A stretch of 64,000 nt of DNA from Alphaproteobacteria bacterium UBA3768. Lineage in GTDB: Bacteria; Pseudomonadota; Alphaproteobacteria; CAAHEQ01; UBA3637. The stretch lies in assembly GCA_002372315.1 (NCBI GenBank), contig DFFU01000012.1:28755-92754 (forward strand), in the 5' to 3' direction. The notes beneath the pieces are model-generated. The model was not told the origin of the DNA. It saw only the letters and a program-made list of their open reading frames with translations, and ran no database searches. The first letter of the stretch is position 1. Each line of letters begins with the position of its first letter. Of this stretch, positions 8,027-24,805 are shown piece after piece. The position numbers and the translations under genes were made by a program.

Positions 8027-11000
8027 TTATTTCTTTTTGTAAATCTTATCTACAATTGTTTGGATTAAAATGTAAAACAATGGAATAAAGAAAAGTCCCA
8101 AAATTGTGCCGATAGTCATACCAAAGAACACAGGTGTGCCCAATGATCGGCGAGAAGCACTTGCAGCCCCAGTGGCCCAAATCATGGGTAATACTCCCAA
8201 AATAAAGGTAAATGCAGTCATCAATACGGCGCGAAAACGTTGTACCAATCCTTGAACCCCAGATTGCACAATATCCGTTCCTTTACTGTGTTCATCTTTG
8301 GCAAATTCCACGATCAAAATAGCGTTTTTACTGGCCAATCCAATCAACAAAACTAATCCTAATTGGGCATAGATGGACATCGGTAATCCCATAATCCATA
8401 AGCCCAGTAATCCCCCGGAAACTGCAAAAATGACACTCATCAAGACGGGCATAGGTACAGACCAGCTTTCATATTGAGCCACTAAGAATAAATAAGCAAA
8501 AAGAACAGCCAATAAAACCAGATAACCTACTTGACCTTCATTTTGTTTTTCCTGATAACTCATGCCTGACCATTCAAAAGCATAATCAGCGGGAAGAACC
8601 TTTTGCGCTAATTCTTCCAAATGCTCCATGGCCGCACCAGAACTAACTTTGTCCGATTGAATGATTGTTAATCCTGCTGCAGGATATTGGTTATAGCGTG
8701 AAATTTGACGTGGAGAGAGCATTGAATGTACGGACACCAAAGTTTTTAAAGGTACCATTTTCCCCGTAGCGCTGGGAACATAAAGTTTGTCCATACTTTG
8801 TAAATTACGCCGGTATTTCCAATCTGATTGGATAATTACCTTATTTACTTGTGTTCCAAAGTTCACATCGTTGACATAGCCAGAGCCTAAATAATTTTCC
8901 AACGCATTAAAGACGTTTGCCATAGGTACATTCATGCTTTCGGCCTTCACACGATCTATTTCCAAAAATAAATTAGGGGTCTTGGATGTAAAGCTGGAAT
9001 AACCATATTGATAATTAAAATCGCCTTGAATAGCATCCAAAACACTGTTTGCGCTAGCTTCCAATCTATTATAGTCCAAATCATTTAAGGATTGAACCTT
9101 AAAATCTAAACCACCCGACATACCCAAACCAGGAATAGCGGGCATTTCAAATAATTGGAACTCTGCCTCTGGAATTTGTGCAAATTTTTGACGTAAAGAA
9201 TTTAAGATGGCTGTAGAATACAGATTTTTATCATTGCGCTTGTCCCATGGTTCCAACCCAATAACGCCCATTGCAACATTTTCACCAGCCCCCATCATCA
9301 TTGAAAAGCCTTCAATCACAATAAAATTTTTCACGCCTTTTTCTTTATCCAAAATAGGCATCATCTTTTGAACTACCTCGTCTGTACGCCCCATGGCAGC
9401 ACCTTCTGGTAAATTAATACTGACCAAGATCATGCCTTGATCTTCACTGGGTAAAAATGAAGTGGTCATTTGTTTGAACATCAGGGTAGAAATAGCGGTA
9501 AAAGCCAAAAATACAATCGCAATTAAAATAACTTTACGAGCAATAAGTAAAACCATTTTACGGGTTGCGTTGGTTGATTTTTCAATCATTTTGTTAAACC
9601 ATGCTAAGGGACCATGGTGTGCCATTGATGTTTTTTTAAAAAAGTGTGAGGCGATAGCTGGAGCCAATGTTAAAGCGCATAAAGTGGAAAAGCATACTGC
9701 AGAACAAATAGTAACCGAAAATTGTTGATAGATTTTACCTGTGATACCACTTAAAAATCCAATGGGAACGAATATGGCCAACAACACGAGCGTTGTGGCA
9801 ATCAGAGCACCTGAAATTTCACGCATTGTTTGTTCGGTGGCGGGCATCGATTGCATGTTTTCATTATTCATTAAATAGGCTACTCGTTCGGTAACGCAGA
9901 TGGCATCGTCCACCACGACACCAATGGCCAATAGCAGACCAAACAAAGTAAACATATTGATAGAATATCCCAAAATAGCCATGACCATAAAAGATGCCAA
10001 TAACGACACTGGAATTGTAATGGTTGGTACCAATGTGGCACGCCAGTCTTGTAGAAAAATATATACGACCAAAATCACCAATAAAAATGTTGCAATCAAG
10101 GTCCACGCAACTTCCTTGACAGAAGCGCTGATGTAATCGGTTGAATCCATGTTGATATTATACTCTAATCCTTTTGGAAAGAATTTAGAGAGTCGTTGCA
10201 ATTCCTTTCTGACCCGATCCATGGTGGATAGTGCATTGGCTCCAGAGGATAAGTTTATAAGCATAACTACTGATGGTGAATGATTATAATAGGCCTCATG
10301 TGAATAATCTTCAGATCCGATTTCAATACGTGCGACATCCTTTAAGCGCAATAACCCACCCTCATCATTTGTTCGGATAATAATGTTGCCGAATTCTTCG
10401 GGGGTTGATAAGCGTCCAGTTGTTTGTAGATTGTAAATCAAACCTTCAGAGTTATCATTGGGCCGAGCCCCTAATTTACCCAATGAGGGTTGATAGTTTT
10501 GACTTTGTATGGCCGAACGGACCACATTGGCGGATAGGTTAAGAGAGGCTAATTTGTCTGCATCTAACCATATACGCATACTTTTTTTGGCACCATAAAC
10601 GGTGACTTCTCCTGTTCCATCCAATTTAGAAAGAGGTTTTACGACATTGTTTTGCAAATAATCGTTGATGTCGCGTGGTGTCATACTGTTATCGGGTGAA
10701 TAAAAACTGATAAAAGCCAGCATATTACTGGATGATTTCATCACGCGCATACCATAACGTTGAACTTCTGCGGGCAATAATGATTGAACTTGTTGGATTC
10801 GGTTTTGTACTTTAACAGTTGCCATGTCAGGATCAGTGTCTGGTTTAAAGGTAATTGTCAGCATATAAGACCCATCCATGCTGTTGGATGACATATAAAT
10901 CATGTCATCCACACCATTGACGCCATCTTCCAATGGAATACCAACCGTTTTGGCAATTGTATCAGCGCTTGCCCCAGGGTAACTGGCACGAACACGTACT

Positions 11001-18291: not shown

Positions 18292-18367
18292 TTTAGAAAG
18301 GATTTAATGAAAAATCAAGCAAAATCTTTTCTTGCAAAAAATCGTGAAATTGTGTATGTTTCAAACT

Positions 18368-20497
18368 ATGGCAGATATTATTGATTTTCTATCAGAATTG
18401 AATCCTGAACAATATCAGGCGGTAACCACAACCGAAGGGCCTTTATTGGTGCTTTCAGGGGCTGGGACAGGCAAAACGCGTGTGCTGACAACCCGCGTGG
18501 GATATATTTTGGCGCAACATTTGGCGCTCCCTTGGCAAATTTTGGCAGTTACTTTTACCAATAAAGCGGCCAAAGAAATGGGGGTGCGTTTGGAACAAAT
18601 GGTGGGGCAGGCTGCTTTGGGCACGTGGCTTGGTACTTTCCACAAAATTGGGGTCAAAATTTTACGCCGTTATGGTGGCTATGTAGGGCTTCAACAAAAC
18701 TTTGCTGTTTTGGACTCAGATGATCAAGAAAGGCTCCTTAAAAATTTAATGCAACAATATGGTGTGGATGTCAAAAAATATCCACCAAAGATGATGTTGG
18801 ATGTCATTCAACATTGGAAAGATCGGGGACTGACTCCCGACAAAGTGACGCATGCTGAATCCAATGATTTTTGTGAGGGGCGTAGTTTGGATTTTTATAA
18901 GCTCTATCAACAAAAACTGAGTGAGATGAATGCGGTGGATTTTGGGGATTTACTCTTATTACCACTTAAACTTTTTCAAGAAAATGCGACAATTTTAGCA
19001 GAATACCAAGAACAATTTCACTATATTTTGGTGGATGAGTATCAAGATACCAATGTGGCGCAGTATATGCTCTTGCGAATGCTCGCCAAAAAACACAATA
19101 ACATTTGTTGTGTGGGGGATGATGATCAATCTATTTATTCTTGGCGCGGGGCAGATGTCGATAATATATTAAACTTTGGTAAAATTTTCCCATCAGCAAA
19201 AATTATTCGTTTGGAAAGGAACTATCGTTCTACGGCACATATTTTGGGGGCTGCTTCAGCACTGATTGCCAACAATACAGGTCGTTTGGGAAAAACATTA
19301 TATGTGGCGGATGAAACAAAAGATATGGGGTCTTTGGTCTGTGTTCAAGGCTATTGGAATGGGGCTCAGGAGGCCGAAAAAGTAGTGGAACAAATAGAGG
19401 ATGATTTACATCGTGGAACGAAACTTTCCCAAATGGCTATTTTAGTACGGGCGGGTTTTCAAACACGTGAATTTGAAGATAAACTGATCCAAGCAGGTAT
19501 TCCCTATAAAATTATTGGTGGTTTTAAGTTTTATGAACGTGAAGAAATTCGTGATGCGCTGGCTTATTTACGACTAGTCCTAAATCCCAATGATGATTTG
19601 GCCTTTATTCGCATTGTGAATAAGCCACGTCGTGGAATAGGAGAAGTTGTGATGCAATCTTTACAGGTAACCGCCCAACAAAATCACATCAGTTTGTTTG
19701 AAGCGATTGATAAAGCAGAACTCAAAACGGCACCCAAAAAATCCTTGGATAGTTTTAAGACTTTGGTTTTGGCCTGGCAAGAACATAGTAAAAATCTATC
19801 ACCTGTGGATTTGGCCAAAGAGGTTATGGATCAATCAGGATATATGATGATGTGGCGTTTGGACAAATCGCCTGAAGCCCCAGGGCGCGTGGAAAACTTG
19901 CAAGAACTTTATAACGTTTTGGGTGATTTTGAAAGTATTGAACAATTTATTGAATATGCGAGTTTATTGACTGAAAATGATGAAGTGGCAACATCCGAAC
20001 AATTGGTTGTGATGACTTTGCATGCCAGTAAAGGTTTGGAATTTGATACGGTTTTTTTGCCCGGTTGGGAAGAAGGGCTTTTCCCCCATCAGCGTGCATT
20101 GGACGAAGCAGGGGATTTGGGATTAGAAGAAGAACGTCGTTTGGCCTATGTAGGACTCACGCGTGCCAAAAAAAACGCCCATATTTCCTATGCCAGTAAT
20201 CGTCGTGTTTATGGGCAATGGCAAAATTCTTTGCCCAGTCGATTTATCAAGGAATTGCCCGAAGAACATATTGATATGCGGGGGAATAACCGCATGGGGT
20301 ATGGGGCGAGCTTTGCGGATGTGCGTATGCCTTGGGCACGTGAAAATTTGGTGCCGAAATCCCGTAAAGGCAAACAAGTGATGCATGAAACTTTTGGTAA
20401 GGGGGTCGTGCTTCGTGAAAATGGTCAAATGTTAGAGGTTGCCTTTGAAAATGGCGGTATCCGTAAAATTGTGGCTCAATATCTGACCGAAATTTAA
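18368..20497 (+). CDS. uvrD: UvrD/Rep-family ATP-dependent DNA helicase (DNA helicase II)
   Basis: ATG at 18368 gives MADIIDFLSELNPEQYQAV. Contains SGAGTGKTRV (Walker A), VDEYQDTN, and the VMTLHASKGLEFD and VGLTRAK helicase motifs. Confidence 0.9.
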   Translation: MADIIDFLSELNPEQYQAVTTTEGPLLVLSGAGTGKTRVLTTRVGYILAQHLALPWQILAVTFTNKAAKEMGVRLEQMVGQAALGTWLGTFHKIGVKILRRYGGYVGLQQNFAVLDSDDQERLLKNLMQQYGVDVKKYPPKMMLDVIQHWKDRGLTPDKVTHAESNDFCEGRSLDFYKLYQQKLSEMNAVDFGDLLLLPLKLFQENATILAEYQEQFHYILVDEYQDTNVAQYMLLRMLAKKHNNICCVGDDDQSIYSWRGADVDNILNFGKIFPSAKIIRLERNYRSTAHILGAASALIANNTGRLGKTLYVADETKDMGSLVCVQGYWNGAQEAEKVVEQIEDDLHRGTKLSQMAILVRAGFQTREFEDKLIQAGIPYKIIGGFKFYEREEIRDALAYLRLVLNPNDDLAFIRIVNKPRRGIGEVVMQSLQVTAQQNHISLFEAIDKAELKTAPKKSLDSFKTLVLAWQEHSKNLSPVDLAKEVMDQSGYMMMWRLDKSPEAPGRVENLQELYNVLGDFESIEQFIEYASLLTENDEVATSEQLVVMTLHASKGLEFDTVFLPGWEEGLFPHQRALDEAGDLGLEEERRLAYVGLTRAKKNAHISYASNRRVYGQWQNSLPSRFIKELPEEHIDMRGNNRMGYGASFADVRMPWARENLVPKSRKGKQVMHETFGKGVVLRENGQMLEVAFENGGIRKIVAQYLTEI

Positions 20498-20733
20498 TCT
20501 CGCTCTTTCCCTTTTTGTAAACGAGAATGCGCTTCTCTTTTTGCGTGAACATGAGTGAAAACACTGCCAGAGGCCATTACCCCTGTTCCAAAAAGAAAAC
20601 GACCTACATTTTCTTTGTCATATTTGATTGTGTAGGCCATCATCACGGCCATTAATGCTGTACTGCCATAAAGAAAGGAAAGAATCAGTTTGTTTTCGGA
20701 TGAAAAATCTTTAAATTTTGCTTTTTTTCTCAT
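20494..20733 (-). CDS. Small two-helix membrane protein, tandem family member G1
   Basis: 79 aa: basic N-terminus (KAKFKDF), helix, turn KYDKEN, Gly-rich helix, basic tail ending KERD. Paralogous to G2-G4 and G6. Confidence 0.55.
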   Translation of the reverse strand: MRKKAKFKDFSSENKLILSFLYGSTALMAVMMAYTIKYDKENVGRFLFGTGVMASGSVFTHVHAKREAHSRLQKGKERD

Positions 20734-20747
20734 GTTTTTTTACTTTT

Positions 20748-20981
20748 TTAATCACGTTGTCTTTGTTTTTTTTCGCGCGCATCTGCGATTGCGTTAATAT
20801 GATATAGAGGAGCTACAAGGCCTGCGGTGATCGTTCCCAAAATGGGTTCTATGAGATTTTTTTTATGCTTGATATTATAGGTTGTTATTACAGCACCAAA
20901 GGCAATCATTCCATAAAGTGTGGGTATAAATATCTTGTGAATCAAGCGCCAATCTTTATAACGAATTTTTTCTTCTGTCAT
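20748..20981 (-). CDS. Small two-helix membrane protein, tandem family member G2
   Basis: 77 aa: KIRYKDW, helix, KHKKN turn, helix, tail REKKQRQRD. Confidence 0.55.
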   Translation of the reverse strand: MTEEKIRYKDWRLIHKIFIPTLYGMIAFGAVITTYNIKHKKNLIEPILGTITAGLVAPLYHINAIADAREKKQRQRD

Positions 20982-20996
20982 ATTACTTTTCCTTTG

Positions 20997-21251
20997 TTAA
21001 TAGTATTGAGATTCTTGTCTTTTTCTTTCAGAACGAATGCAATTGCGTTCGGCTCGGGCTGTGAGTAAAGCCGTTGATGCCATCACAGCTGATCCGATGG
21101 CAGAATCCTTAATTTTTTTTGTATTACCTGTTTTGACGGCGTAAATTGTATAGCAAGCTCCCAGTGCGGCCAAAAAACCAAACACAGTTACACCGATTTT
21201 GGCGGATTTTGAAAAATCTTTAAAACAAATTTTTTCTTCTTTCTTTTTCAT
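20997..21251 (-). CDS. Small two-helix membrane protein, tandem family member G3
   Basis: The internal ATG at 21251 (MKKKEEKICFKDF...) overlaps the G4 stop as ATGA. Same helix-turn-helix plan. Confidence 0.5.
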   Translation of the reverse strand: MKKKEEKICFKDFSKSAKIGVTVFGFLAALGACYTIYAVKTGNTKKIKDSAIGSAVMASTALLTARAERNCIRSERKRQESQYY

Positions 21252-21460
21252 CTGACTCTCTTTCGTGCATTGTGCATAATTTTTGAAGCGGATAAGGCGT
21301 TGATTGCACAGCATCCTGCTTGAACCGCAGCCCATTTTTTGCGATTGGTTTTATAATCTGCTACACTCAACAATGCACAAAAAACCATAAAAGCAATAGC
21401 ACTTGAAAAACAGGCTTTGTCAACAAGGTGCCATTTTTTTAAAGGAACTTTTTTATCCAT
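21248..21460 (-). CDS. Small two-helix membrane protein, tandem family member G4
   Basis: 70 aa: PLKKWHLVDK, helix, YKTNRKK turn, helix, basic tail ARKRVR. Confidence 0.5.
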   Translation of the reverse strand: MDKKVPLKKWHLVDKACFSSAIAFMVFCALLSVADYKTNRKKWAAVQAGCCAINALSASKIMHNARKRVR

Positions 21461-21473
21461 AATCTACCCCTTT

Positions 21474-21704
21474 TTAATCCCTGCAAATAACCTTAATAAA
21501 TTTAGGATCAATTTTTCGCTCTCCGTCTTCTTTATCTTCAAGTTTTGGCGACTTTGGGGGTAATAAATCTTTGGGGTTCATTGGTGGTAACTGCTTCTTT
21601 CTTTGATGAGATAACCAACAAGCGTAAGCAAAGGCAAAGATGCTTAAAGCGAAACCTAAACCGGTGGCGGTACATTGTATACAGGTGGTGGTTTTTTCAT
21701 TCAT
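21474..21704 (-). CDS. Small single-helix membrane protein G5 in the same operon
   Basis: 76 aa: one helix (GLGFALSIFAFAYACWL), then a Pro/Lys/Asp-rich tail ending in RD. Confidence 0.45.
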   Translation of the reverse strand: MNEKTTTCIQCTATGLGFALSIFAFAYACWLSHQRKKQLPPMNPKDLLPPKSPKLEDKEDGERKIDPKFIKVICRD

Positions 21705-21707
21705 AAC

Positions 21708-22031
21708 TTATGCCTTTTCTAATTCATTTAAGATTTCTTTATAGCGCTGGCGTTTTGTTTCGTGCTTTGCCAGTGTGGAACAAGAAGCAGTTACACAAGG
21801 GGCTAATACCAAGGGTACAACAATGCTTCTTTTTTGACCAGCATAAATGCCACCTGCCACACATAAAAAAGACACAATACTTTGCAGGATTACATTTTTT
21901 GTATGAAATTCAATTTTATCACGACAATGGGCCTTTTGATGTTCAATAATCCGTCTTCTTTTCCAATCTATAGAGGTGATTGGATTTAAAGGGGCTTGTT
22001 CAGACTTGTAAAAATCTTTTTTCTTTTTCAT
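21708..22031 (-). CDS. Small two-helix membrane protein, tandem family member G6 (first gene of the operon)
   Basis: 107 aa with a longer basic N-terminus, then helix, GQKRS turn, helix and a basic tail. Confidence 0.5.
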   Translation of the reverse strand: MKKKKDFYKSEQAPLNPITSIDWKRRRIIEHQKAHCRDKIEFHTKNVILQSIVSFLCVAGGIYAGQKRSIVVPLVLAPCVTASCSTLAKHETKRQRYKEILNELEKA

Positions 22032-22039
22032 GGCGCGAA

Positions 22040-22068
22040 ATTATAGCATATTTTGAAAAGATAATCAA
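22040..22068 (-). promoter_or_regulatory. sigma70 promoter for the small-membrane-protein operon; predicts a leaderless mRNA
   Basis: Minus strand reads TTGATT, 17-nt spacer, TATAAT. Only 8 nt (ttcgcgcc) separate the -10 from the G6 ATG at 22031, and there is no SD sequence. Confidence 0.5.
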
Positions 22069-22079
22069 GAAAATAAAAG

Positions 22080-22379
22080 GTGCTCAACGCAAGGGATAAA
22101 ATGTTAGAAGGTACACACATAAATCTAACTGAAAGGAAAAGCACTATGTGGGGAATGTATGGTGAAGAAAGTGATGATGAGCCTATGACTCGTCAAGATA
22201 GGGATATAGGAGAAGGTATTCTTGTTTCAGAGGACAAAATATCTTGGGAAAAGCGTCGTGAAATCGCGGAAGAAATTCGGGGTAGGGCTGTTGCAGTTCA
22301 AACTTCTTATCGCAGATTAGTGAGTAGAAACAAGCGTTTTCAAGAAGAATTGGAATATCAAGAACGTGCGGGAGAATAA
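22080..22379 (+). CDS. Hypothetical charged protein (start uncertain; frame stays open past a single TAA)
   Basis: 99-aa ORF rich in E/R/K. After the TAA at 22377..22379 the same frame continues for 37 more sense codons to the TAA at 22491..22493. Confidence 0.3.
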   Translation: MLNARDKMLEGTHINLTERKSTMWGMYGEESDDEPMTRQDRDIGEGILVSEDKISWEKRREIAEEIRGRAVAVQTSYRRLVSRNKRFQEELEYQERAGE

Positions 22380-22562
22380 CTGGAAAAGCATAAACGAAAT
22401 AACAAAACCGATGAATTGAAACAGGCAATGCGTGAACGTGATGCTAAAGGCAGTAAGAAAACGTTGAGAACTTTTTTGGTGGAAAAAACATAAGACAGCT
22501 TCCCCAAAGGCATTATCCAAATCGGTTATATGTAAAAAGCAAAAAGAAAACGAATAAAATGT

Positions 22563-22587
22563 TCCCCGTCCAAACGGGGATTTTTTT
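22563..22587 (+). terminator. Rho-independent terminator
   Basis: TCCCCGT-ccaa-ACGGGGA hairpin followed by T7. Confidence 0.75.
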
Positions 22588-22638
22588 AACGTTTTTAAAA
22601 ATCTTGCTTTTTTTTCAAACTTACGCTACACTGCTTCC

Positions 22639-23883
22639 ATGTTTAATAAAACAGAAAGATTATTAGCATTTCGCTATTTAAGGTCTCGTAAAAGAACGGG
22701 CTTTGTGTCCGTGATTGCAGGTTTTTCATTTTTGGGAATTATGCTGGGGGTTGCGACTTTAATCATTGTGATGAGTGTCATGAATGGATTTAAAGCCGAA
22801 TTGATGGGGCGTATTTTGGGGCTCAATGGACATTTGGGGGTGTATCCCAATTTTGGCCCTACCTTGACAGAATATACTGATTTAAAAGACAGAGTTTTAA
22901 GTATAGAGGGTGTTCAAGCTGTTGTTCCTGTGATTGATGGTCAGGTCATGCTGTCCACAGAATCGGGGCAGGCGGGTGTGATGGTGCGTGGTATATCACG
23001 TGAAGATTTTGAAAGTCGTGTGCTACTAAGGCAAAATTATCATGGTGAAAATCTGATTTATTTTGAAAAAAATCAAGTGATTTTGGGGTGGCGTTTAGCC
23101 TCCAAATTGGGGGTAAGAGCTGGGGATAAGATGACATTGATTTCCCCTAAAGCAAATCTGACTGCTTTTGGTTCTATGCCAAAAATGAAAAGCTATACTG
23201 TTTTGGGAACATTTGACAGTGGTATGAGTGAATATGATGGTAACTTTGTTTTTATGCCGATTACAGAAGCACAAAAGTTTTTTGGTATGAAAGGATCTGT
23301 ATCGCATTTGGAAGTTTTTGCCAACGATTTATCTCAGGTTCCTCAAGTTTTGAATGATACTTTTGATGCATTAGATGGTCAGGCTTCTGTTTACGATTGG
23401 CGTCATACAAATCAAGCTTTTTTTAATGCCGTAGAAGTAGAACGTAATGTCATGTTTTTGATTTTGACGTTGATTATTATCGTGGCGGCATTTAATATGA
23501 TTTCTGGTCTCATTATGTTGGTGCAAGATAAATCCAAAGATATTGCTGTTTTGCGTACAATGGGAATGGCAAAAAGGGCGGTTCAGAGGGTGTTTTTATT
23601 GGCTGGTCTTACTGTTGGAGCTGTTGGAACGATGGCTGGTGTTTTGTTGGGACTGGTTTTTTGTTATAATATTGACCGTATTAAAAATTGGTTGGAAAGT
23701 TTATCGGGGCACGAGCTGTTTTCCGCCGAAATTTACTTTCTGTCGCATTTGCCGGCCAAAGTAGAATTGACAGAAGTTCTTTGGGTCGCGGGTATGAGTT
23801 TAGCGTTGGCTTTTTTGGCGACTTTGTATCCCAGTTGGAAGGCATCTAAAACGGATCCGGTGGAGGCACTCAGATATGAATAG
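22639..23883 (+). CDS. Lipoprotein-release ABC transporter permease (LolC/LolE family)
   Basis: N-terminus LAFRYLRSRKRTGFVSVIAGFSFLGIMLGVATLIIVMSVMNGF, a large periplasmic loop and a C-terminal FtsX-type 3-TM bundle. It overlaps lolD by 8 nt. Confidence 0.9.
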   Translation: MFNKTERLLAFRYLRSRKRTGFVSVIAGFSFLGIMLGVATLIIVMSVMNGFKAELMGRILGLNGHLGVYPNFGPTLTEYTDLKDRVLSIEGVQAVVPVIDGQVMLSTESGQAGVMVRGISREDFESRVLLRQNYHGENLIYFEKNQVILGWRLASKLGVRAGDKMTLISPKANLTAFGSMPKMKSYTVLGTFDSGMSEYDGNFVFMPITEAQKFFGMKGSVSHLEVFANDLSQVPQVLNDTFDALDGQASVYDWRHTNQAFFNAVEVERNVMFLILTLIIIVAAFNMISGLIMLVQDKSKDIAVLRTMGMAKRAVQRVFLLAGLTVGAVGTMAGVLLGLVFCYNIDRIKNWLESLSGHELFSAEIYFLSHLPAKVELTEVLWVAGMSLALAFLATLYPSWKASKTDPVEALRYE

Positions 23884-24607: not shown

Positions 24608-24805
24608 ATGATGAATATTTTATTATTGAGACTTTTGATTTTATTTTATATTGCAGGTCTAGTATTTTTGTTGGTGAAACTGGCTTCATCTGATATGGCG
24701 AAAAATAATCGTCGCTTTTGGGCAATTTTACTGTTTCCTATTTGTTTGGCAACAGCAGAAGGGCGTCAATTTTTGAAAAAAATTTTAAATGGAAAGGAAA
24801 AATAA
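24608..24805 (+). CDS. Small two-helix membrane protein upstream of the SPFH gene
   Basis: 65 aa with two hydrophobic helices. It ends 1 nt before the SPFH start. Function unknown. Confidence 0.4.
   Translation: MMNILLLRLLILFYIAGLVFLLVKLASSDMAKNNRRFWAILLFPICLATAEGRQFLKKILNGKEK

Follow-up and report, generated by a model that had tools for sequence, protein, structure and literature searches.

A variable operon of small predicted membrane proteins in an accessory-gene hot spot between uvrD and lolC of uncultured gut Alphaproteobacteria

Introduction

Of all parts of bacterial genomes, small membrane proteins are annotated least, and the uncultured Alphaproteobacteria of the gut are almost unstudied. 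A 64-kb stretch of DNA from one such uncultured gut alphaproteobacterium (Alphaproteobacteria bacterium UBA3768, contig DFFU01000012.1; the whole stretch is referred to as the window) carries a tightly packed array of six small minus-strand genes at positions 20494–22031, here called G1 to G6 in the order of their coordinates. What are these genes, what holds them together, and what could they do in the cell? An original prediction, made from the DNA letters without database searches, had read the array as an old, diversified tandem family of hairpin membrane proteins in which G6 was one copy among others, and had placed it between uvrD and the lol genes, outside any characterised family and without a toxin, lysis or secretion gene nearby.

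Results

Three unrelated families in one array

All six open reading frames (ORFs) are present as described, with intergenic distances of 14, 15, −4, 13 and 3 nt in the order G1 to G6, and the gene calls of the public protein collection use the same start codons. Judged by pairwise and profile comparison, they belong to three sequence-unrelated orphan families: the head gene G6, the gene G5, and the paralogues G1–G4. An all-against-all phmmer comparison unites G1–G4 and 30 further proteins from the corresponding gap of related loci (L numbers in the following) in one hairpin superfamily with three recognisable subtypes. Direct matches between the copies of the window range from 9e-9 (G1–G2) to 4e-3, with G1–G3 at 4e-5, and relatives in other genomes bridge the copies; G4 joins through L086_304 (1e-7). 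Further relatives were found at 2e-28 for G1 (L071_537), at 7e-29 and 4e-19 for G2 (L071_1600 and L001_830) and at 7e-19 and 2e-15 for G4 (L071_356 and L001_597), and the superfamily hidden Markov model (HMM) matches G2 at 3e-25 and G4 at 4e-20. The 5′ ends of G2 and G3 are still 85% identical in DNA sequence over 34 nt. On these matches G1–G4 are old, diverged paralogues, so that the tandem family originally proposed is retained for four genes and given up for five or six. Among 5.8 billion proteins, the superfamily profile recovers 25.

The G6 family comprises 40 relatives of the window protein with E-values down to 7e-23, all of them unnamed and free of Pfam domains, and a profile search returned 14 clusters (50% identity) among 1.84 billion representatives. 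Its members range from 86 to 125 aa and share the invariant residues K33, H43, Q50, P73, S83, H90 and R94; the long N-terminal extension of the window protein recurs in one subclade. Two candidate homologies of G6 were rejected, namely to G1–G4 (hhalign probability 16%) and to an alternative type of head gene present in L005, L006 and L007 (0.2%). The plan originally ascribed to G1–G4 and G6 alike, with a basic N-terminus, two helices joined by a short turn and a basic tail, survives as an architecture and not as a sequence family.

G5 has five relatives of 56–72% identity. In L088, a relative directly follows a G6-type gene; in L089, another is the third gene of the array, behind two G6-type genes; and the remaining three lie on short contigs equal in size to contigs with G6 relatives. 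Conservation within the family is highest in the charged tail, LEDKEDGERKIDPKFIK, and G5 gives no match to the G1–G4 superfamily HMM. We also considered G5 as a frameshifted hairpin copy and rejected this, as no second hydrophobic helix occurs in any frame and the conserved part is the tail itself; the earlier description of one helix followed by a charged tail is accurate. All three families are tiny and restricted to a narrow group of uncultured gut Alphaproteobacteria.

Proteins of all three families tend to end in -E-R/K-D/N/E (G1, G2 and G5; L001–L089; P0001–P0086), and the three products noted earlier to end in -RD are G1, G2 and G5. A C-terminal [RK][DNE] is found in 29 of 52 array proteins derived from the loci, whereas among the long ORFs of that DNA it occurs in 17 of 613. 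Since the ending also occurs in the last genes of arrays, an embedded Shine-Dalgarno element of the next gene is not the whole explanation, and the shared ending may be a common recognition or turnover signal. Repeats between the array genes were not found. An integron-type cassette array was rejected on the gaps of −4 to 15 nt, the lack of attC-like inter-gene repeats and the lack of an adjacent integrase.

The uvrD–lolC gap is an accessory-gene hot spot

A search with UvrD returned 75 loci, nearly all from metagenome-assembled genomes of uncultured Alphaproteobacteria from human, ruminant and rabbit guts. We located the end of uvrD and the start of lolC in 38 sequences and read the gap between them in each. 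In ten lineages the gap measures 33–87 bp and holds no gene. In L001–L005, L007, L009, L071 and L076–L087 it extends over 0.5–1.8 kb and holds 2–7 small minus-strand genes of the array type, which also occur in the contig-end fragments L006, L010 and L011; the gap of the window, at ~2.1 kb, consists of the six genes and an insertion. Other lineages carry unrelated cargo, either LemA and TPM-domain genes, a pilin-like gene or two larger proteins. As the gap is empty, filled by an array or filled by other cargo depending on the lineage, it is a recombination-prone hot spot of accessory genes within a conserved housekeeping neighbourhood. The HMMs of the array families gave no match outside this gap in the whole window and in ~1 Mb of related loci.

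The first-transcribed, lolC-proximal gene of every array is of the G6 type or of the alternative head type (L005, L006), and it is followed by one to six hairpin or G5-type genes. Instead of one copy among others, as had been assumed, G6 represents the conserved head gene. The smallest arrays consist of a head gene and one hairpin gene (L076, L009, L087). L007 holds two head-type genes, one G6-type and one of the alternative type, and no G1–G4-type hairpin gene, and L089 (364–1277) holds two G6-type head genes in tandem, followed by a G5 relative that is split over two frames (1039–1260 and 1068–1277) and is either a frameshifted pseudogene or an assembly error. Across genomes, a head gene is usually accompanied by one or more hairpin genes, and the hairpin set grows to up to six genes and is reshuffled between lineages. 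A scan of JGI metagenomes added one locus only, a scan of the viral contigs of IMG/VR found no relatives of the array, and a tblastn search of a plasmid collection with G6 gave no match.

Constraint within genes and exchange between lineages

We compared the ratio of nonsynonymous to synonymous substitution rates (dN/dS) among four closely related genomes (L002, L003, L004 and L080). The head gene and two hairpin genes gave values of 0.05–0.37, approximately 3–5 times those of the flanking uvrD and lolC genes in the same genomes (0.02–0.14). The small array genes are protein-coding and constrained, and they evolve several-fold faster than their flanks; with dN/dS below 1, gene-wide positive selection is not seen. 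Together with the relatives that every array gene has at the protein level in other genomes and the promoter conserved in 14 loci (see below), these values bear out the claim that the genes are real.

The similarity of the arrays does not follow the similarity of their flanks. L001 shares 92% identity with the window in UvrD but 57% in G6 and carries a different gene set, whereas L071 shares 66% in UvrD but 84% in G6 and holds the closest relatives of G1 (55%), G2 (62%) and G4 (49%). This discordance suggests that lineages have exchanged arrays or that alternative alleles have persisted for a long time. The G+C content at third codon positions is 0.27–0.35 in the array and 0.36–0.38 in the flanking genes.

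One promoter in front of the head gene

The best promoter-like site of the region lies directly upstream of G6 (Table 1) and combines 10 of 12 consensus matches with an extended −10 element. In all 14 loci compared, a near-consensus TTGAC(a/t)–17 nt–TATAAT precedes the head gene, often with the TG of an extended −10 element. A comparable promoter was not found inside the array, and this absence and the tiny intergenic spacings support a single operon from G6 to G1. The −10 box of the window ends 8 nt before the ATG of G6, and a distance of 7–9 nt from the −10 box to the ATG is found in nine of the 14 loci, the window among them; owing to this short spacing, the operon mRNA is probably leaderless or nearly so. 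On the opposite strand, lolC has elements that we read by eye as TTGCTT (22604–22609), a 17-nt spacer and TACACT (22627–22632), followed 6 nt later by the ATG. The element GCTACACT is conserved across loci, and both divergent genes, the head gene and lolC, look leaderless. Within the operon, Shine-Dalgarno-like purine runs precede G5, G4, G3 and G2. The 4-nt overlap of G4 with G3 is ATGA. A longer form of G3, from an ATG at 21335, is possible; the public protein collection records the short form, upstream of whose start lies the Shine-Dalgarno-like element GAAAGAGAG. At the far end, the stop codon of G1 overlaps that of the convergent uvrD by 4 nt. Rfam gave only two chance-level matches in or beside the array, both at the terminator listed in Table 1.

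Table 1 Features of the operon and its immediate surroundings in the window
Feature	Position	Strand	Description
G1	20494–20733	−	79 aa hairpin protein, subtype 'B', last operon gene
G2	20748–20981	−	77 aa hairpin protein, subtype 'B'
G3	20997–21251	−	84 aa hairpin protein, subtype 'B'
G4	21248–21460	−	70 aa hairpin protein, subtype 'C'
G5	21474–21704	−	76 aa, one N-terminal membrane helix, then Pro/Lys/Asp/Glu-rich tail
G6	21708–22031	−	107 aa head gene; two hydrophobic helices, loop GQKRS
Operon promoter	22040–22068	−	TTGATT, 17 nt spacer, TG-n-TATAAT
Window-specific insertion (~530 bp)	22069–22600	+	Between operon promoter and lolC promoter
ORF in insertion	22101–22379	+	92 aa, small, acidic/charged
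Hairpin terminator in insertion	22563–22580		G+C-rich; terminator reading on both strands
uvrD	18332–20497	+	Convergent with operon
lolC	22639–23883	+	Divergent from operon

We hold this structural and evolutionary description of the operon with high confidence.

Predicted architecture of the products

The six products are basic, with isoelectric points of 9.0–10.1 and net charges of +4 to +11. Their first helix is strongly hydrophobic throughout (Kyte-Doolittle values of 1.8–2.3 over 17 residues). For the second helix, only G6 (1.84) and G2 (1.62) show clear hydrophobicity; the values of G1, G3 and G4 (1.08–1.24) are marginal, and G5 lacks this helix. In G6, a basic N-terminal helix precedes the two hydrophobic helices (1.98 and 1.84) and a basic C-terminal helix follows them, so that the hairpin is flanked by helices on both sides. 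AlphaFold2 models calculated with family alignments are helical hairpins for G6 (H17–66 and H71–106, pLDDT 72) and for G1 (H12–38 and H40–78, pLDDT 71). The products are thus predicted to be small inner-membrane proteins with transmembrane helices, as microcin immunity proteins are. The loops between the helices carry charges of +2 to +3 in G2, G3, G4 and G6; because of these positive loops and the marginal second helices of G1, G3 and G4, a hairpin topology with both termini in the cytoplasm (N-in/C-in) is not secure.

Resemblance of the head gene to SLATT proteins

We scanned the six proteins and the family alignments against Pfam, NCBIfam, PHROG and PADLOC. Nothing reached threshold, sequence profiles of the PDB contained no relative, and the claim that the proteins belong to no characterised family holds. 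Foldseek comparison of the G6 model with the PDB gave generic helical hairpins only, such as the arm of seryl-tRNA synthetase and CHMP3, none with an E-value of 0.001 or below. Only SLATT_1 recurred in these scans. SLATT proteins are predicted pore-forming effectors with 2–3 transmembrane helices that belong to CBASS, RADAR, DRT and other conflict systems and have been described as highly mobile (PMC9226505; PMC7159879; bioRxiv 10.64898/2026.04.29.721553).

Below threshold, the NCBIfam model of SLATT_1 (NF033634) matches 20 of 39 G6-family members (best E-value 9.8e-5) and the Pfam model (PF18181) matches 12 of 39 (best 0.0018), counts that amount to about one observation because the 39 sequences are related to each other. 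When the same sequences were shuffled within 9-residue blocks, which preserves their hydropathy profile, 0 of 39 matched, and the resemblance to SLATT_1 therefore exceeds what composition produces. All matches of the family score ~12–22 bits against a cut-off of 41 bits, with the window G6 at 12.1 bits. The search over 1.84 billion representatives provided no bridge to known families, and no cluster was annotated or recognised as SLATT. In the window and in more than 20 related loci the neighbours of the array are only lolC and lolD, uvrD and small hairpin genes; SMODS, SLOG, reverse transcriptase, TIR or other sensor or enzyme genes do not occur beside it. On account of (i) the non-independence of the sequences, (ii) the missing bridge across the library and (iii) the missing association with a sensor or enzyme, we call G6 SLATT-like and withhold family membership, which scores below the curated cut-off do not establish. 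Elsewhere, one member matched the PADLOC '2TM effector' model at 0.015, three hairpin proteins weakly matched SLATT_4, SLATT_1 and SLATT_fungal, single members matched Hol_Tox (0.031) and PepG1 (0.11), and one of 28 members matched a PHROG holin at 0.14.

Discussion

Protection at the membrane as the preferred explanation

Hot-spot location, variation of copy number and discordant similarity favour a conflict or accessory role, and they do so without deciding between its specific forms, among them the immunity, holin/antiholin and small-toxin functions that the original prediction had named. Our first choice among these, held tentatively and as a possibility rather than a probability, is a hot-spot accessory membrane module that protects the cell against membrane-targeting attack. 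We infer a function in conflict at the membrane from the hot spot, the variation of copy number, the exchange between lineages, the apparent constitutive expression and the lack of an enzyme. A protective role ranks first because it needs no partner in cis, tolerates constitutive expression and matches the microcin immunity proteins in size and location. In this mechanism, the basic N- and C-termini would face the cytoplasm and the Gly/Ala/Ser-rich helices would assemble within the inner membrane as homo- or hetero-oligomers. The constitutively expressed products would most likely act as an immunity- or exclusion-type set in conflict at the membrane and stop toxins that insert into the membrane, or functions of incoming phages, in the manner of the small inner-membrane immunity proteins against microcins and colicins. 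The shared scaffold or core subunit would be G6, with specificity provided by the variable hairpins. The habitat that goes with such a role is the dense gut community of human, ruminant and rabbit.

Several results weigh against protection. No cognate toxin, secretion system or mobile-element gene adjoins the array, and in Pfam and NCBIfam scans the products resembled none of the known immunity families. Immunity arrays do not typically have a head gene as strongly conserved as G6, with its invariant polar residues. In addition, gene-wide dN/dS below 1 means that no arms-race signature is demonstrated, and the insecure hairpin topology affects the proposed orientation in the membrane.

Immunity proteins of pore-forming colicins and of contact-dependent inhibition (CDI) ionophore toxins share several traits with the array products: small size, transmembrane helices, an inner-membrane location, presumably constitutive expression, diverse sequences and a competitive gut habitat. 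Class II microcin immunity proteins resemble the products in the same traits, and validated members are small, have transmembrane helices and reside in the cytoplasmic membrane (PMC12219008). Unlike all of these, the array has no adjacent toxin or exporter, shares no sequence similarity with them and possesses a conserved head gene; they are plasmid- or island-borne in Enterobacterales, whereas the array is chromosomal in Alphaproteobacteria. Orphan immunity arrays, for which the acquired interbacterial defence clusters of gut Bacteroidales and orphan cdiI and rhsI genes are examples, consist of multiple small genes for protection that have diverged and lack a cognate toxin, and their content varies between strains of gut bacteria. 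The array of the window is likewise multi-gene, diverged, without cognate toxin, variable in content and found in a gut host. The known orphan arrays carry the immunity genes that go with known effector families of type VI secretion, CDI or Rhs systems and are often associated with a recombinase, whereas here recombinase, inter-gene repeats and a known immunity family are all missing.

Alternative explanations

In the explanation that we rank second, G6 would be a minimal two-helix pore-former and the downstream hairpins its inhibitors or co-subunits, comparable to antiholins or antidotes; release of the pore upon envelope or phage stress would cause abortive infection or programmed depolarisation of the membrane. 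We regard such a self-contained SLATT-like or holin-like module as doubtful. SLATT_1 matches of 20 of 39 (NCBIfam) and 12 of 39 (Pfam) against 0 of 39 shuffled sequences speak for it, as do the '2TM effector' match at 0.015, the weak SLATT_4, SLATT_1 and SLATT_fungal matches of three hairpin proteins and the repeated occurrence of a head gene together with one or more hairpin genes, which is reminiscent of a toxin–antidote pair. SLATT proteins themselves are predicted pore-forming effectors of conflict and described as highly mobile (PMC9226505; PMC7159879). The G6 hairpin, as modelled, resembles SLATT_1 (PF18181/NF033634) in having two transmembrane helices joined by a short basic loop and flanked by cytoplasmic helices, and half of the G6 family matches below threshold where shuffled controls do not; both are accessory genes. 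In contrast to SLATT_1, the G6 family is shorter, the window protein scores far under the cut-off, no nucleotide-signal generator, reverse transcriptase or other sensor stands beside it, and it occupies a fixed chromosomal slot with unrelated small hairpin genes downstream. The low scores of all matches (~12–22 bits against 41), the 14 clusters of which none was identified as SLATT, and the lack of SMODS, SLOG, reverse transcriptase, TIR or other sensor genes argue against the pore, for which a consensus, apparently constitutive promoter would also be odd if the pore is suicidal; L007, moreover, has two head-type genes yet no G1–G4-type hairpin gene. The comparison with holins is similarly divided. 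Class II holins and pinholins have ~70–80 aa, with two helices, of which one is enriched in Gly, Ala and Ser, and a C-terminal tail of strongly basic character. The array proteins match holin–antiholin pairs in size, helices, small-residue-rich second helices and basic tails, whereas endolysin, spanin and prophage context are missing, relatives are absent from viral contigs, PHROG holin matches are inconsistent, and there are six genes instead of one or two.

A lineage-specific physiological role, in which the products modulate or stabilise envelope complexes or respond to membrane stress and evolve rapidly under weak constraint, appears rather unlikely to us. It would accommodate the purifying selection on all genes, the invariant polar residues of G6, which suggest a fixed partner or activity, the envelope genes around the array (LpxC, LolC, LolD and the SPFH protein) and the strong promoter back to back with that of lolC, which suggests co-expression with envelope functions. 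However, most relatives that keep uvrD and lolC adjacent lack the array, so that Lol function does not depend on it; the number of copies varies between 2 and 7, and the discordance between array and flanks points to exchange instead of vertical housekeeping inheritance. Secreted antimicrobial peptides, either microcin-like or of the leaderless-bacteriocin type, or an array of type I toxins are very unlikely, even though the small, cationic, helical products of tandem diverged genes and the weak Hol_Tox and PepG1 matches fit them. No N-terminus shows a double-glycine leader, the locus contains neither a peptidase-type (C39-type) ATP-binding cassette (ABC) exporter nor a membrane-fusion protein, and the ABC system next to the array is LolC/LolD, a conserved pair that loci without the array have as well. 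For type I toxins, 70–107 aa exceeds the typical length, and the genes form one packed operon with a single strong promoter and no Rfam match; this translational packing appears to leave no room for an antisense RNA per gene. That the ORFs are spurious or decaying is scarcely credible: the missing annotation, the tiny family and the frameshifted G5 relative in L089 are outweighed by dN/dS well below 1, frames conserved in more than 20 loci, invariant residues in G6 and in the G5 tail and a conserved promoter.

What is known and what is new

Variable arrays of small membrane proteins at hot spots, possibly SLATT-related, are a kind of locus known already; new are the families and the sensor-less arrangement. 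One speculative combination, to which we assign a low probability, is a new membrane conflict system of two components and no sensor that is confined to gut Alphaproteobacteria. Here a minimal SLATT-like hairpin, G6, would form or nucleate a pore or complex in the membrane, and an exchangeable, growing set of unrelated partners of the G1–G5 types would determine its activity or specificity, with the C-terminal -E-R/K-D/N ending as common recognition or turnover signal. The whole would amount either to a small switch for abortive infection or to an orphan immunity island of a new class, directed at membrane-targeting toxins.

In any case, the locus is a clean natural experiment, in which one fixed slot is empty or holds 2–7 diversified hairpin genes behind a conserved head gene and one strong promoter, and the families deserve a family definition because none exists. 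If the preferred explanation of protection against membrane-active toxins or phages is true, the operon extends the immunity or defence proteins of the gut microbiome by a new set and provides, at the same time, a minimal model for SLATT-like proteins with two transmembrane helices that work without an attached sensor. If the proteins are merely lineage-specific membrane filler, the result is an ordinary one.

Neighbouring features and minor observations

The genes of the neighbourhood encode, in order, LpxC, ThiF, TatD and UvrD before the array and LolC, LolD, an SPFH protein and DnaE behind it. Inspection of these neighbours in the window showed no toxin, lysis or secretion gene, in agreement with the original prediction, which had also placed the array correctly between uvrD and the lol genes.

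No related locus has the ~530-bp insertion, which separates the promoters of the operon and of lolC and splits an ancestral back-to-back promoter region; in relatives, head gene and lolC are only ~35–120 bp apart. The ORF of the insertion has no tblastn match in any fetched locus, no Pfam family and no phage match, and the insertion is probably not part of the array.

The unrelated cargo of the uvrD–lolC slot, or of the position behind uvrD, is diverse in itself. LemA-like and TPM-type genes with Gly-rich tails are listed at ~8200–9800 for L041, L045, L028 and L054, and a 172-aa pilin-like protein for loci including L048 and L070 (8325–8843). Other cargo consists of a 308-aa protein with a C-terminal hairpin together with a 148-aa protein that also ends in -NRD, and of a 92-aa two-helix protein on the opposite strand. 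Loci with other cargo also include L058 (8166–9558), L013 (8314–8592) and L012 (8346–8957); in L012, a 203-aa ORF downstream of uvrD resembles a site-specific recombinase by eye only.

The next intergenic region, downstream of lolD, is likewise variable among relatives. In some of them it holds genes of mobile or conflict type, which encode a phage-type integrase and Zeta toxin, APH kinase, RNHCP and Imp-YgjV proteins (L083, 1–1735; L087, 1–1972). In the window, a 65-aa ORF with two hydrophobic helices (24608–24805, plus strand) lies between lolD and the SPFH/Band-7 gene, and called genes of 60–66 aa occupy the same position in L080, L083 and L086; the 65-aa product may be a partner of the SPFH protein.

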